Numbered from the stretch's first letter, positions 16,962 to 23,873 are shown. The stretch is 56,053 nt of DNA from Candidatus Pyrohabitans sp. JdFR-17 (GCA_002011115.2 MTME02000085.1:1-56053); one strand, 5' to 3'. A program made the numbers and translations. The notes: generated from the sequence alone by a model not told the origin.

Positions 16962-18977
16962 TTAACTTTCGGCGCCAAGCACAACGTCGCCCTCTGCGAG
17001 AGCTTCTGAATCGCGAACCCAGCGAATCAGACCAAGGGTAACCCTGGCCACAAACCACAGGAAGAATAGGGTGAGAAGTGTAAGGTAAACCTTAAATGCT
17101 CTTTCCACAGTGCGCTTTCCTTTTGTGAGCTCCTCCAGCCTTGACTGAATAAGCTCTGCCTCCCCCCTCTCGCCAGCTTTTTCGAGCAAAGACTTTGCTT
17201 CCTCAACGCGGGAGATAGCTGAGTCGTAGTGGGAAATAACTGCCTCGTAGTGGAAAGGGTTGATGACAAAGGAAGCCTCTTTTATATTGAAGCTGAGTCT
17301 CCTAGCTGCGGCCACCTCCTTTTCGGAGCTTTTAAGCAGGACCGCCGCTTCAGTAAGAGCTTCATAGTACGCCCGCTCCATCTCCTCCTGCTTTGAGGCG
17401 TACTCCCTCACTTTCTCCTCATCTCCTAGGAGAGAATAGAGCGTCTTAAGCCTCCTGTAGTCGAGGGTAGCACTGCGGTAGTCCATTTTCTCCTTTCCAA
17501 CCCGCTTTTCCAGAGCCTCTGCTACCTCGCGTGCCTCTCTGCTCCACACATCCTCAAGCGCCTCAACTGCAGGTATAGCATGCTTTTTAAGACTTTTGTC
17601 CTCCAAGCTCTCACTGCCTATTTTCGCCCTGTTCAGACTGCTTTTTGCAAGTATGATGCGCTCAACGCGCTCGTCCAAGGGCTTGCCATTGAGGTCTGAG
17701 AAGATGTTAATGAATGAACTAACCCCACTGTACACCGACATGACCATCGCTATCTCCCTGAGCTCTGTTACACCCTTCGAAGCGGCTATCAGCTCGCGAA
17801 GATTCTGCACCGTTTCCTGATAGGGCAGCGACGGAAGCTTGGCTAAGGAGCGCTCCGCCTCCTCGAGGCCAGGGAAGTACACCGTAGCTTCAGCCACAAT
17901 CTCCGCGCTTCCTGCATACTTAGTGGCGAGCGCAAACACCCAGTTCTTTTTGCCCAGGCTCGCATCCGGAGGCAAGAGCAGAGTAAAGTTTATCGTTGCA
18001 TTGCCTCCCGGAGGGATGTAGTTAACCTGAGAGTAGGCTACCCATCCCTCTTCACCACTCACCTGAGATATGCTCAACCCTTCAATGGGGGTGTAGCCCC
18101 CTACCTCTGAGATTGTAATGCTCGCCGTAGCTGTGTCCCTGTCCACCTCAAAAGTTAAACTGCCGAAGTCTATCTTGGCGCTGGAAAGCGCCATCTCAGG
18201 CTTGGGAATGGTGTAGTTGGCCTGCTCAAGCGTCGCCACTTGAACATTGTAGTCCTTTACAATCCTGGGGGTAACCCAGTAGTCTCCTGGTCTGAGATAC
18301 CTCTCCGGCACCTGAATTTTTACCTTAATACTCTTAGACCCTCCAGCGGGCACGTCTCCCACACCTGTGGTATAACTTAGATTAACAGGACCCGTCTTTG
18401 AGAGGTAGAGCGAGACGTTGCTTGCGCCAGCGTAGCCAAAAGTCTCCCTCACAGTGAGAGTGCGCTCAAAGCTTTGCCCCGCTCTGAGCTTGCCCCACTC
18501 TGCAAGGTCCCAGGTAGCTTCGAGCGTCGCAGGCGGGTGGTCCACATTTATTGTGATGTAGAATTCGTGCAGCAATGGGTGGACTCCTACTTTGGTGATA
18601 TAGGTGTAGTTGCCCTTAACCTCAAGCTTTGCCCCATAGCTACCCTCAGCCACACTGGGAGGAGCGCGGAAGGAGATCATGAGATACGAGCTGTCCTCCG
18701 GCTCAACCCTGAGATAGTTCTTCTCCAGTACAACACTAATGCCCTTATCCGCTGCCTCACCTGAGAGCTTTGCCTCAAGGTTTGAGAGGATGGCAGCGCT
18801 TTCATTGTCCGCATTATAAAACTTCAGGGTTAAGTTTGTTTCAAAGTAGGTGACCTCATTCTTGGGCTTGTCGAAGTCGAAATCCACCTCGCTATAGCCA
18901 AAGCGCGCCTCCACGAGAGCGCTCACCGGCGTTGTGAGGAGCAGGAGCATAACAAGAATAGCACTCAGGCAACGCAT
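16962..18977 (-). CDS. Exported Ig-like + helical protein with C-terminal TM anchor
   Basis: Signal peptide MRCLSAILVMLLLLTTPVSA, beta-rich repeats, helical region, TM and short tail. Confidence 0.8.
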   Translation of the reverse strand: MRCLSAILVMLLLLTTPVSALVEARFGYSEVDFDFDKPKNEVTYFETNLTLKFYNADNESAAILSNLEAKLSGEAADKGISVVLEKNYLRVEPEDSSYLMISFRAPPSVAEGSYGAKLEVKGNYTYITKVGVHPLLHEFYITINVDHPPATLEATWDLAEWGKLRAGQSFERTLTVRETFGYAGASNVSLYLSKTGPVNLSYTTGVGDVPAGGSKSIKVKIQVPERYLRPGDYWVTPRIVKDYNVQVATLEQANYTIPKPEMALSSAKIDFGSLTFEVDRDTATASITISEVGGYTPIEGLSISQVSGEEGWVAYSQVNYIPPGGNATINFTLLLPPDASLGKKNWVFALATKYAGSAEIVAEATVYFPGLEEAERSLAKLPSLPYQETVQNLRELIAASKGVTELREIAMVMSVYSGVSSFINIFSDLNGKPLDERVERIILAKSSLNRAKIGSESLEDKSLKKHAIPAVEALEDVWSREAREVAEALEKRVGKEKMDYRSATLDYRRLKTLYSLLGDEEKVREYASKQEEMERAYYEALTEAAVLLKSSEKEVAAARRLSFNIKEASFVINPFHYEAVISHYDSAISRVEEAKSLLEKAGERGEAELIQSRLEELTKGKRTVERAFKVYLTLLTLFFLWFVARVTLGLIRWVRDSEALAEGDVVLGAES

Positions 18978-18978
18978 G

Positions 18979-19929
18979 CTACGCCCCCACCAGTTCATTG
19001 CCAAGGTAGCAGTCATACGTATCCCTCTCCCAGCTTAGAATTCTGCTGTGGATGTACACCGAGAGTAAGGTCAGGGTTAGAGACACAATGGTAAAGAGCA
19101 CAAGAATCTTCTTCCTAGTTGTGGAGTAGATTTCATCAGCCTTAACATAACTCTCCTCCACCTGTATCAGCTTCTCCACCTCGCTGTGGAGCTGATAAAG
19201 CTCTTTAGCTTTAACGAGGCTTATTCTGGCTTCTCTAGCCAGAGAGTAGGCGTCCACAAATCCAGGGAAGTCGTCGCCTAGCTCCTGTGCGCGGGTGAGC
19301 AAATCCAAGGCCTCGCTCAGATAACCTTCCGCTTCCATTATGTCGGCGATATACTTCTCTTCAAGGCTTTGCTTCCTCACCTCTAGGCTTTTCGCCTGCA
19401 GAGCATCTGCTGCCTCGTAGCTGGCTATAGCGAGATCAAGGTTTGCAAGCTTAGCTCGTGTGCTCTCTGCCTTCTCCGCCCTGTCCTCGAAGATTAAACC
19501 CTGGGAGAGAAGGAAGCTCTCCCTTCCATGCTCAGCCGCCTGCACCGCATCCTGGGCGAGAATTCCCAAACCGGAGCTGGAGGAGCGCATCGCAGAGATA
19601 AACTTCTGGGACTCGATTGCCCTAGCTATGCCCTCCCTCTGCGATCCCATCTCCGCGCTTCCCACGAGGAGGTAGGCATTGTGCATAGCTTTGAGGAAGT
19701 CAAGGGATGAAGAGGCAAAGTTTACAAGCTCCCTGCTGCAAGCTGTGCGCTCCTGGGAATAAATCAAAAGCAGTACATCCTGCTTCACCTGGGCCAGCTC
19801 CGAATACGCTGCGAAAGCTGGAGAGGTGAATCCCCGAAGCTCCGCGAGTACTGCAGAGCACTCCTGAGCATGAGCCGCAGGGAGCAGCATAATCTCAAGG
19901 GATAGAAGAAGCACCAGCCTCGTGTTCAT
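18979..19929 (-). CDS. Exported helical protein with C-terminal TM anchor
   Basis: Signal peptide ending AHA, all-helical body, TM and short tail; 1 bp before the next start. Confidence 0.8.
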   Translation of the reverse strand: MNTRLVLLLSLEIMLLPAAHAQECSAVLAELRGFTSPAFAAYSELAQVKQDVLLLIYSQERTACSRELVNFASSSLDFLKAMHNAYLLVGSAEMGSQREGIARAIESQKFISAMRSSSSGLGILAQDAVQAAEHGRESFLLSQGLIFEDRAEKAESTRAKLANLDLAIASYEAADALQAKSLEVRKQSLEEKYIADIMEAEGYLSEALDLLTRAQELGDDFPGFVDAYSLAREARISLVKAKELYQLHSEVEKLIQVEESYVKADEIYSTTRKKILVLFTIVSLTLTLLSVYIHSRILSWERDTYDCYLGNELVGA

Positions 19930-22570: not shown

Positions 22571-22574
22571 AAGC

Positions 22575-23873
22575 ATGCACGCTACGAGATGGGGGATAAT
22601 AGCGAGTGGACAAGGAGCGAACCGCATCGCATTTCTCTACTATGCAAGGTATAAAAACCCCAGTATCGCAGACAGGGTGCTTCTCCTTAACACCACCCCG
22701 GCGGATGTGAAGCCTGAGTCGCCGCTTGAGCAGATCTTCGCCAGCAACCCGGAGTTTAGGGAGGAGTACGAGAAGATAAAGCGTGAGCGCGTTTGCATCT
22801 TTGGCAGGGCGCCGAGTGGCGCGGGCAACAACTGGGTACTTGGCGAAAGAGAGGCGATGGCTGATTATGACAACATTCGCAGGTACATCGCAAATTTAAA
22901 GCTTCGCAGCAGTGATGTGCTTCTGGGCATTGCGACTCTGGGGGGAGGCACCGGCAATGGTTCGCTTCCTTATATCATACACAGGGTCAGGAAGAACCCG
23001 GGAGCAGGGATGGAAAGGATAAATAACTTCCTGGCTCTCGGAATACTCCCATACGACTTTGAGGCTCCCCAGAGGCATTTCAACACCATTTGCGGTCTCT
23101 CGAGGCTATTGCGCTATAACGGGGAGCAGAACGCAGCGCTTGTAATTCTGGTGGACAACTCCCAGGTGGAGCGTGTTCTCGGCTTAAGGCGGGGGCAAAG
23201 AGAGGAGCGCTACCAGAGGATAAACCAGGAGATTATAAAAACGATACACATGCTCATCGCACCCAGCAGTTACGCTTCTCGAGCTACGATTGATATCGCA
23301 GACTATTACCAGCTTCCCAGCAACCTTGGTATGGTTCACTTTACCCCTTGCTTGAGCCTGGGAAATGATCCGGATGTGTTGAGCCTGGACGCCATACTGG
23401 AGAGCGCATCAACCAATGCGATGGTCCCCTTAGATAAGGGCACAGCTACAATGGCGTACATAGTGGTCATCGCCCCCGAAGAGAAGGTAGCTAACGGGGA
23501 GATCACCCAGGAGGACTTGGAGGACATCTCGAGGGAGTGGGCAGCCAAGCATCTAGCGGGAAGCCAAGGGGGAATTCTGAGGTACACCAGCCTAATCGCC
23601 TCCCCCGAGAGCAAGAGCGTGGACGCCATGATTCTCCTGGGTGGCTTCAGCCTGCGCAGAATAATGGAGAAGAGCCTGGAGAAGTACTATGATTTTAAAG
23701 ATTCCCTCAGCGATGGCAGCGATGAGAGGTCCCGCATAGAGCTTGAGAGAGTGGAGAAGCTGGAAAAGCAGCTAAAGGAGTACATCGCCCTGACAGAAGA
23801 GAAGATAGCGAGGTTAGAGAATAAAAGTAGGAAAGCGAAAGCAGAGCTGAGAAAGTGGGGCTTATCCTCCTAG
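22575..23873 (+). CDS. Tubulin/FtsZ-superfamily GTPase 2 (divergent, tubulin-like loops)
   Basis: SGQGANRI (T1), LNTT..D, GAGNNW (T3), LGGGTGNG (T4), LVDN, IDIAD (T7), VHF. Confidence 0.9.
   Translation: MHATRWGIIASGQGANRIAFLYYARYKNPSIADRVLLLNTTPADVKPESPLEQIFASNPEFREEYEKIKRERVCIFGRAPSGAGNNWVLGEREAMADYDNIRRYIANLKLRSSDVLLGIATLGGGTGNGSLPYIIHRVRKNPGAGMERINNFLALGILPYDFEAPQRHFNTICGLSRLLRYNGEQNAALVILVDNSQVERVLGLRRGQREERYQRINQEIIKTIHMLIAPSSYASRATIDIADYYQLPSNLGMVHFTPCLSLGNDPDVLSLDAILESASTNAMVPLDKGTATMAYIVVIAPEEKVANGEITQEDLEDISREWAAKHLAGSQGGILRYTSLIASPESKSVDAMILLGGFSLRRIMEKSLEKYYDFKDSLSDGSDERSRIELERVEKLEKQLKEYIALTEEKIARLENKSRKAKAELRKWGLSS

Follow-up and report, generated by a model that had tools for sequence, protein, structure and literature searches.

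We examined a 56,053-nucleotide stretch of Candidatus Pyrohabitans sp. JdFR-17 DNA (GCA_002011115.2, MTME02000085.1:1-56053), referred to hereafter at its full length as the window, and found that a block of six genes, E1-E2-E3-T1-CC-T2, spans positions 14422-23873 and recurs in distantly related archaea. T1 and T2 are divergent members of the tubulin superfamily, CC is a candidate membrane tether, and E1, E2 and E3 are predicted exported proteins with transmembrane (TM) segments. On balance we favor the view that the block is one conserved module, a membrane-bound two-tubulin cytoskeleton wired to the cell envelope. An initial annotation, made from the DNA letters of the window, had described five of these genes as a candidate cytoskeleton-envelope system: an operon of two tubulin-like GTPases flanking a TM-anchored helical protein, back-to-back with two exported, TM-anchored proteins. 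The open reading frame (ORF) calls match this description, with gaps of 2 bp between T1 and CC and 4 bp between CC and T2, and with E3 and E2, each carrying a C-terminal TM segment, divergent from T1. The block is larger than was described, however, as E1 also belongs to it.

T1 and T2 were compared with the known families by library and structure searches. On the Pfam Tubulin model (PF00091, cut-off 33 bits) T1 scored 89.3 bits, above the threshold, and T2 scored 29.6 bits, below it. A Halorubrum ortholog of T2 reached 37.3 bits, again above, and PF00091 was assigned to nearly all T2 homologs among the matches listed in the precomputed Pfam data, the exceptions being three fragments. Both proteins were far below the 295.2-bit cut-off of the NCBIfam FtsZ model TIGR00065 (85.7 bits for T1 and 31.7 bits for T2). 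On Tubulin_2 (PF13809, FtsZl1; cut-off 27 bits) T1 scored 12.5 bits and T2 had no match. In phmmer searches of PDB the best solved relative of T1 was CetZ1 of Haloferax volcanii (4b46, E 9.8e-19, full-length alignment), and its best tubulin match was at E 3e-6, compared to 1e-18 for FtsZ/CetZ. T2 matched FtsZ best (5.3e-6), followed by TubZ (4xcq, 7.7e-5), tubulins (about 4e-4) and CetZ1 (4b46, 0.0031). The predicted model of T2 (13 homologs, pLDDT 81, pTM 0.85) has the tubulin/FtsZ fold. In Foldseek its match to FtsZ 1w5a was at E 3.2e-17, and its resemblance to FtsZ, to CetZ1 and to tubulins was of similar strength (E 3e-17 to 6e-15); the best target-normalized score was to CetZ1 4b46 (TMt 0.85), and TMq to Odin tubulin 7eve was 0.72.

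The two proteins are 25% identical across 206 residues. This value and the TIGR00065 scores bear out the strong divergence, from each other and from FtsZ, that had been read from the sequence at the outset. The GGGTG motif and the acidic T7 residues noted at the same time in both GTPases proved to be invariant in the family alignments. Among 14 T1 sequences the invariant positions were G9, Q10, G12, GGGTGxG (G125-G131) and the IDxxD residues D234 and D237; among 13 T2 sequences they were ASGxG, GxGN, TLGGGTGxGS, which takes in T121-G127, and IDxxD with D240 and D243. Thus GGGTG(S/N)G and a T7-type IDxxD are present in both proteins, in what we take to be the named GTP-binding and T7 loops. Motifs, fold and tree together predict that T1 and T2 bind GTP and are competent to polymerize. 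In Hydrothermarchaeota and Micrarchaeota the long C-terminal helix of T2 is followed, at the end of the protein, by a few conserved residues of the type W-G-(F/L) (LRKWGLSS, VEWGFGR, LEKWGF); this tail, which the haloarchaeal and ANME-2 (anaerobic methanotrophic archaea) forms lack, may be a second docking peptide.

The genome contains seven tubulin-superfamily genes: two true FtsZ genes (448.6 and 406.7 bits on TIGR00065), three genes in tandem on contig C36, T1 and T2. A tree of 66 proteins and 386 columns was built with IQ-TREE under LG+C20 PMSF. It included all tubulin-family genes of this genome, most of those from five other genomes (some were left out, among them fused or split Altiarchaeum forms) and selected T1 and T2 homologs from 21 of the 80 loci described below. 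The FtsZ clade (support 100/100) and the canonical CetZ clade (99/96), which held the three C36 paralogs and the Natrinema CetZs, both excluded T1 and T2. T2 formed a clade of 22 rows with 100/100 support, drawn from Hydrothermarchaeota, Micrarchaeota, Altiarchaeales, ANME-2 and Halobacteria. The T1 clade, also at 100/100, comprised 15 T1 rows together with one ANME-2 and two Altiarchaeum genes that are sited elsewhere in those genomes. The two clades were not sisters, and the nesting within CetZ that would have made them ordinary members of that family was not seen. A third haloarchaeal paralog, T0, formed a clade of its own. Five long branches (Alti_C80b, ANME_C149, Natr_C41_46k, Alti_C80a and ANME_C79) were flagged, and their exact places are unsure. 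T1 and T2 are therefore two separate, strongly supported, non-canonical clades of the tubulin superfamily. The C36 trio (G000:C36:2938-6451; L003, L004 and L006) consists of one canonical CetZ, the first gene of the tandem (E 1.1e-109 to 4b46), and two long-branch paralogs, and the same CetZ-clade trio is present in a second Hydrothermarchaeota genome (G002:C9:948675-953107).

Conservation of the block was followed by scanning one genome per species with a T2 alignment. This yielded 97 relatives, of which 80 loci were kept, and neighboring ORFs of at least 70 aa were labeled by phmmer and jackhmmer from the proteins of the window. At loci with at least 1.5 kb upstream of T2, CC lay directly upstream in 22/22 Hydrothermarchaeota, 5/5 Micrarchaeota and 23/23 Halobacteria, or 50/50 in total. 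T1 was present in all 31 full-flank loci (8 Hydrothermarchaeota, 3 Micrarchaeota and 20 Halobacteria). The eight from Hydrothermarchaeota all carried E2 and E3 as well, and six of them carried E1. In Halobacteria E1, E2 and E3 accompanied T1 in 20/20 loci, and the genes, all of the same orientation, are arranged as T1-(membrane protein)-CC-T2-E1-E3-E2. The arrangement in Micrarchaeota was CC-T2-(short E1)-T1, the last gene reversed, in 5/5 loci. Synteny thus extends over three distant lineages, and the absence of synteny in other genomes that would have counted against a shared system was not seen.

Two further lineages have the genes in separate places. An ANME-2 genome has E2(-) E3(-) divergent from T1(+) as in the window, and its T2 is on another contig among unrelated genes. 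The neighbors of ANME-2 T2 genes were considered as a link to the module and rejected; they are CdhC (acetyl-CoA synthase beta) upstream and a large downstream ORF that belongs to no family. In Altiarchaeum a T1-family gene lies among E1-, E2- and E3-like genes, with T2 elsewhere. Taken over all lineages, T1 goes with E2 and E3, and T2 goes with CC where CC exists. At the ANME-2 T1 locus (L118, G004:C79), positions 5824-7285 encode, after T1, two small paralogous proteins (241 and 244 aa) that both have a leader at the N-terminus and a TM segment at the C-terminus; no relatives of these two were detected in the other lineages. The Altiarchaeum cluster (L120, G005:C80:8000-27000) includes, at 4149-7115 on the minus strand, a 988-aa protein of the FtsZl1 type (Tubulin_2, 53.4 bits), so that three tubulin-superfamily types (T1-family, another divergent tubulin and FtsZl1-type) share one neighborhood.

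Within the phylum of the window, T2 was found in 24/38 genomes and in 14/21 of those of high quality. CC occurred in the same 24 genomes and T1 in 23 of them, the exception being a genome whose contig ends at CC. None of the 14 phylum genomes without T2 had T1 or CC, and whole genera and a family of six lacked all three genes. In this phylum T1, CC and T2 have been acquired and lost as a set. Among 301 sampled genomes of Halobacteria, 28 carried T2. As the genes are present in only part of each group and are sometimes on megaplasmids, the module is accessory and not essential.

The plasmid copies include that of Halobacterium salinarum R1, where an 11-gene co-directional run on PHS2 is annotated in RefSeq as two 'cell division protein FtsZ' genes (T0 and T1) and nine 'hypothetical proteins', among them CC, T2, E1, E3 and E2. 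T2 homologs were found on five haloarchaeal megaplasmids, PHS2 and four others, all typed as non-mobilizable in PLSDB. Most copies of the module are chromosomal; contigs of 1.9 Mb, 2.1 Mb and 620 kb are among those that carry it. The PHS2 cluster (L123, record 168359-189846) has additional genes: T0 (540 aa), two upstream genes for hypothetical proteins of 630 and 454 aa, genes for small membrane proteins between T1 and CC, and, after E2, a convergent gene for a beta-propeller protein of the PQQ-like type. The product of the gene that precedes T1 in Halorubrum has zinc ribbons and DUF5518. The accessible text of Darnell et al. (2020) describes a plasmid gene of Halobacterium NRC-1, cetZ5 (VNG6260G), as growth-phase regulated, which for this cluster is a lead only.

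The TM protein between the two tubulins had been proposed as a membrane tether, and CC has the topology expected of one. By hydropathy, an N-terminal TM hairpin (residues 3-51) precedes an all-helical cytoplasmic body. In a model from 14 sequences (pLDDT 88.9) the TM hairpin is joined by a long body of helices, and residues 419-453 form a small alpha/beta domain. No Pfam or NCBIfam family matched CC in the library scans, and a fold search returned 0 matches at E ≤ 0.001; the top-ranked rows, a de novo design and PRC1 (E 0.41, prob 0.12), were not significant and were set aside. The family is rare, with 101 proteins at E ≤ 0.001 among 1.84 billion representatives in a profile search. The part common to CC of the window and the haloarchaeal form of about 700 aa is residues ~314-450.

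This conserved part was used in a complex prediction with the chains T1, T2 and CC 311-455, in which CC was the scored partner. The score was 0.57 (runs of 0.56, 0.58 and 0.57), which is weak support, and the best of three controls, one of them with T2 replaced by an unrelated protein, was 0.00. The runs agreed in at least 96% of contacts with a partner pLDDT of at least 79. The mark for this score was reached by 58/80 solved complexes and 2/110 mismatched pairs, in a calibration that differed from our prediction in that the latter used its own alignments and three chains; only 7 of the 80 solved complexes, and both of the mismatches that passed, had scores of 0.60 or less. Since CC and T2 are invariably adjacent in three lineages, we consider that there is modest support for binding of the C-terminal part of CC to T2.

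The initial annotation had also coupled the filaments to a trans-envelope scaffold, and conserved cytoplasmic parts were found in all three exported proteins. Hydropathy suggests that E1 has a signal-like N-terminus (residues 1-24), an ectodomain of about 500 aa, a single TM segment (~528-546), after which come KKRLAK and a C-terminal part of about 295 residues. The ectodomain matched beta-propeller and Ig-like families, all above cut-off (PQQ_2 30.4, DUF5711 26.9 and Big_7 24.5 bits). The cytoplasmic part combines a CarboxypepD_reg/PEGA-like beta-sandwich with a helical domain, and its CarboxypepD_reg score of 31.7 bits was just below the cut-off of 32.3. Across lineages only residues ~528-843 of E1, the TM segment and the C-terminal domain, are conserved, as judged by phmmer against the E1-like proteins of Micrarchaeota and Halobacteria. 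The topology is the same in Hydrothermarchaeota, Micrarchaeota and Halobacteria, with K/R residues after the TM segment. The Micrarchaeota protein, at 285 aa, consists of the TM segment and cytoplasmic domain only. In the Halobacteria protein a leader and an ectodomain of about 400 aa are followed by one to three TM segments and then by about 480 more residues. A search of the ESM Atlas with residues 550-844 gave only CarboxypepD_reg/PEGA-type leads, with scores up to 0.86, below the level at which a match counts as more than a lead. The T1 proteins of Micrarchaeota (L028, L029, L031, L032 and L034; reverse strand) are 525-604 aa long and have a C-terminal extension of about 165 aa. This extension matched a PEGA-type family weakly (19.1 bits). 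The C-terminal part of E1 contains a beta-sandwich of this kind too, which is a hint, and no more, that the E1 domain may work beside T1 in the cytoplasm.

E2 has an N-terminal leader, one or more beta-sandwich regions, a long helical region, a C-terminal TM segment (643-665) and a cytoplasmic tail of 19 aa (hydropathy). Its family matches were sub-threshold (NPCBM_assoc 20.9 bits, choice_anch_D 24.2 bits). The S-layer stalk protein SlaB is built from a signal peptide, beta-sandwich domains, a coiled coil and a C-terminal TM segment; E2 had no match to the NCBIfam SlaB model, and a weak 13.6-bit SlaB match fell on E1. Homologs of E2 were found in Hydrothermarchaeota, Halobacteria, ANME-2 and Altiarchaeum. 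E3 is helical, with a C-terminal TM segment at 273-295 (hydropathy) and a 21-aa cytoplasmic tail; its N-terminal leader is under the hydropathy threshold and was read by eye from the sequence. E3 resembles the C-terminal half of E2, a jackhmmer search from E3 also gathered E2 (71 matches at 37 loci), and an E3-like ORF of Halobacteria aligned to E2 residues 464-680. E2 and E3 are probably paralogs.

The N-terminal ectodomain regions of E2 and E3 diverge strongly, and their tails share a motif, WVRDSEALAEGDVVL in E2 and WERDTYDCYLGNELV in E3, which we describe as [WYF]xxD-x6-[GD][DENS]x[LVIM][LVIMT]. It was present in 25/32 E2 homologs with a C-terminal TM segment and in 19/37 E3 homologs under the strict form of the pattern (32/37 under the loose form), in Hydrothermarchaeota, Halobacteria and ANME-2. 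Among the other ORFs of at least 200 aa at the same loci it was present in 0/835, and in 0/102 of those with a C-terminal TM segment.

Coordinates of the genes and of the parts discussed above are collected in Table 1. In the 71-bp spacer between the divergent genes E3 and T1, TTTATATTT at 19940-19948 is followed by its exact reverse complement at 19962-19970, which locates the inverted pair of identical TATA-like boxes reported at the outset; GGTGA at 19992-19996 precedes the T1 start. The inverted pair, about 24 nt apart, has the same spacing in the four closest loci (L008-L011) and is partial in two more; sub-windows taken from a further nine Hydrothermarchaeota loci were examined and it was not detected there. 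We infer that it is a putative promoter element of the spacer. The consensus of the promoter scan was that of bacterial sigma-70, which does not apply to an archaeal promoter.

Table 1. Positions in the window of the six genes, the divergent spacer and the conserved protein parts.
Feature	Position	Strand	Remarks
E1	14422-16956	+	844 aa; convergent with E2; outside the coordinates of the initial annotation
E1 conserved cytoplasmic domain, residues ~552-844	16075-16956	+	phmmer domain matches
E2	16962-19016	-	684 aa; divergent from T1
E2 tail motif WVRDSEALAEGDVVL, residues 666-680	16977-17021	-	cytoplasmic tail
E3	18979-19929	-	316 aa; divergent from T1; 38-bp overlap with E2
E3 tail motif WERDTYDCYLGNELV, residues 300-314	18988-19032	-	same motif as E2 tail
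Divergent spacer E3/T1	19930-20000	.	71 bp; TTTATATTT, its reverse complement, GGTGA
T1, non-canonical tubulin-superfamily GTPase	20001-21200	+	399 aa
CC, candidate membrane tether	21203-22570	+	455 aa
CC residues 311-455	22133-22567	+	part conserved with Halobacteria; partner chain in complex prediction
T2, highly divergent tubulin-superfamily GTPase	22575-23873	+	432 aa; long C-terminal helix 390-427

Downstream of the block, the G+C content of the window drops from ~0.51-0.52 to 0.40-0.46 between 24000 and 36000, where there are very large surface-protein genes; this region may be an acquired island of envelope genes. Two of the neighboring products are a 614-aa NosD/beta-helix and CWB2 protein (23870-25714) and a 1309-aa beta-helix/Ig-like protein (26572-30501). 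The NosD/CWB2 gene was considered as a member of the module and rejected, because full-length homologs adjoin T2 at only two loci (L008 and L010), with weak matches at two more.

The contacts, polymerization and cellular role that we infer from these observations would be as follows. CC would sit in the membrane by its N-terminal helical hairpin and expose about 400 helical residues to the cytoplasm, and its conserved C-terminal part would most likely bind T2 and hold T2 filaments at the membrane. E1 would cross the membrane once, joining its beta-propeller ectodomain to the cytoplasmic beta-sandwich and helical domain. E2 and E3 would be stalk-like exported proteins held by their C-terminal TM segments, with the tail motif as a docking peptide for a cytoplasmic partner. 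T1 is the likeliest partner because it stays beside E2 and E3 even where T2 and CC are elsewhere. T1 would then be linked to the envelope through the E2 and E3 tails and perhaps also through the cytoplasmic domain of E1. The filaments might position or pattern the extracellular scaffold of stalks and propellers, or pass force to it, and the outcome would be an effect on envelope architecture or on a localized surface structure.

Several points weigh against a single module of this kind. CC was beside T2 at 0/25 ANME-2 and 0/3 Altiarchaeales loci, only 1/25 ANME-2 T2 loci contained a T1-family gene, and neither CC nor T1 was found at any of four Altiarchaeales T2 loci; T2 can therefore work without CC and T1 nearby, and the module can be split. 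E2 and E3 are missing from Micrarchaeota (0/5 loci). The tail-motif pattern was defined after these sequences had been viewed, and as E2 and E3 are probably paralogs, the shared tail partly reflects common descent. The CC score lies in a range in which a prediction is wrong more often than not, unless the contact was already likely on other grounds. The E-values of phmmer and jackhmmer apply to small sets of ORFs, and in GC-rich haloarchaeal DNA the position of an ORF start is uncertain. Finally, the tree was built from archaeal FtsZ, CetZ and related proteins, so that T1 and T2 are placed relative to these and not to eukaryotic, Asgard and bacterial tubulins, TubZ and artubulins.

The same distribution bears on how T1 and T2 would assemble. 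An obligate T1:T2 heterodimer that, like alpha/beta-tubulin, BtubA/B and Asgard AtubA/B, builds a single mixed filament, with CC as the membrane anchor, would account for two deeply diverged paralogs being kept in one operon with gaps of a few base pairs. It would also account for the co-occurrence of T1 and T2 in each of the 23 assessable genomes of the phylum and at every full-flank locus, and the T1 and T2 clades are broadly parallel, with Hydrothermarchaeota, Micrarchaeota and Altiarchaeum on one side and Halobacteria and ANME-2 on the other. Yet beta-tubulin lacks the catalytic residue, and the full catalytic IDxxD of T7 is retained in both T1 and T2. Haloarchaeal clusters contain a third tubulin, T0. 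T1 and T2 are not linked in ANME-2, where T1 is missing from 24/25 T2 loci, or in Altiarchaeum, and each has its own context there; we regard an obligate heterodimer as doubtful. Because the genes are unlinked in these lineages and the T7 loops are intact in both proteins, we lean, by analogy with archaeal FtsZ1/FtsZ2, towards two cooperating filaments rather than a co-polymer. We think it unlikely that the block encodes a trans-envelope cytoskeleton in the fullest sense, that is, a GTP-driven filament of two tubulins (possibly an alpha/beta-like heteropolymer) clamped by CC and mechanically coupled to the scaffold through the E2 and E3 tails and the E1 domain, with polymer dynamics patterning or moving a surface structure.

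T1, CC and T2 might instead be no more than neighbors of E1-E3 in a region rich in surface genes, the tubulins acting in shape or division like those of the CetZ type and uncoupled from the envelope. The surface-protein genes that fill the window and the Micrarchaeota loci, which lack E2 and E3, would fit such an arrangement. It seems improbable to us, however, as E1-E3 accompany the tubulins in very distant lineages despite the change from a divergent order in Hydrothermarchaeota to a co-directional one in 20/20 Halobacteria loci, E2 and E3 remain beside T1 in ANME-2, and the parts of E1-E3 conserved across lineages are the cytoplasmic side and the C-terminal helical region of E2. A TubZ-type system for replicon partition or a mobile element, with the C-terminal alpha/beta domain of CC as adaptor, is highly improbable: the five megaplasmids, the patchy distribution in Halobacteria (28/301) and the weak match of T2 to the TubZ chain 4xcq could be cited for it, but most copies are chromosomal, all five plasmids are non-mobilizable by PLSDB typing, CC is membrane-anchored, the products of three of the six genes are exported or span the membrane, and Pfam and NCBIfam detected no DNA-binding family in the seven proteins scanned (no search for centromere repeats was made).

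The reading we prefer, a membrane-bound two-tubulin cytoskeleton wired to the envelope, has partial likenesses among known systems. Archaeal FtsZ1/FtsZ2 with SepF resembles T1/T2/CC in having two diverged paralogs in one process, one of them membrane-anchored; SepF anchors FtsZ2 at the membrane, according to the portions of the literature covered, and CC is here the candidate anchor of T2. In contrast, T1 and T2 are not FtsZ by TIGR00065 or by the tree, two FtsZ genes are present in the genome besides them, CC belongs to no known family and is integral to the membrane through its TM hairpin, and the module adds three envelope proteins. CetZ (CetZ1 and CetZ2 of Haloferax volcanii; 4b46, 4b45, 3zid) is the nearest solved relative of T1 and the best target-normalized structural match of T2, and CetZs are likewise archaeal, non-division proteins that are often multi-copy. 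T1 and T2 nonetheless lie outside the canonical clade, and the match of T1 to 4b46 (E 9.8e-19) is remote compared to that of the CetZ of the same genome (1.1e-109). The CetZ neighborhoods described in the accessible text of Brown & Duggin (2023) contain pili, purine/cofactor and sugar-epimerase genes, unlike this block.

The BtubA/B-BtubC operon of Prosthecobacter and Asgard AtubA/B likewise combine two tubulin-family genes with a helical accessory protein. BtubA/B and AtubA/B are described, in the portions of the literature covered, as bona fide tubulins that form heterodimers and mini-microtubules, whereas T1 and T2 are about as distant from tubulin as from FtsZ, and BtubC is soluble whereas CC is membrane-embedded. 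FtsZl1 systems also have a divergent tubulin-superfamily protein in an operon with membrane and secreted proteins and a proposed role in membrane remodeling. The FtsZl1 and FtsZl2 families were described by Makarova & Koonin (2010), whose accessible text places vWA, kinase, GTPase and OmpA genes in the operons of FtsZl1. T1 and T2 differ from FtsZl1 by their Tubulin_2 scores (12.5 bits against a cut-off of 27, and no match), and a true FtsZl1-type gene (53.4 bits) adjoins the Altiarchaeum variant.

The architecture had been presented at the outset as not characterized. This held for the module: the literature searched contained no description of the six genes together, of the co-loss pattern, of the E1-E3 topology or of the tail motif, and no experiments, the surveys' figures and supplements, about 1.7 million PMC articles and subscription journals lying outside the scope of the search. 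It needs a qualifier for the tubulins, which very probably figure already in two phylogenetic surveys. Brown & Duggin (2023) mention 'non-canonical TSF proteins' (tubulin-superfamily) of patchy distribution. Santana-Molina et al. (2023) describe, for Altiarchaeota and for the Halobacteria and Methanosarcinia within Halobacterota, CetZ-like/'Halo.Tub' groups that have copies in quasi-tandem, neighbors with coiled coils and N-terminal blocks resembling eukaryotic tubulin, and they leave the function open. From the taxa and the description, these groups are very probably T1, T2 and T0. The split into two families and the presence in Hydrothermarchaeota and Micrarchaeota are not in the survey text covered, and the accessible text of Pfeiffer & Dyall-Smith (2021) and of a 2026 Asgard microtubule preprint does not mention these proteins. 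One T2 homolog bears the NCBI name 'FtsZ family protein, noncanonical'.

Filaments of the tubulin superfamily serve division (FtsZ1/2) and shape and motility (CetZ) in archaea, and we know of no prokaryote in which a tubulin-family filament is coupled from the inside of the cell to the outside. Our results identify two orphan groups of non-canonical tubulins as partners in one conserved, co-inherited six-gene module. Its other members are a membrane protein dedicated to it and three surface proteins that cross the membrane and carry conserved candidate docking sites in the cytoplasm, and the module spans Hydrothermarchaeota, DPANN (Micrarchaeota), ANME-2, Altiarchaeum and Halobacteria. As the whole operon is on plasmid PHS2 of the genetically tractable H. 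salinarum R1, the coupling of filaments to the envelope is directly testable. If it is true, the dynamics of a cytoplasmic polymer would directly pattern or move a surface structure of an archaeon.

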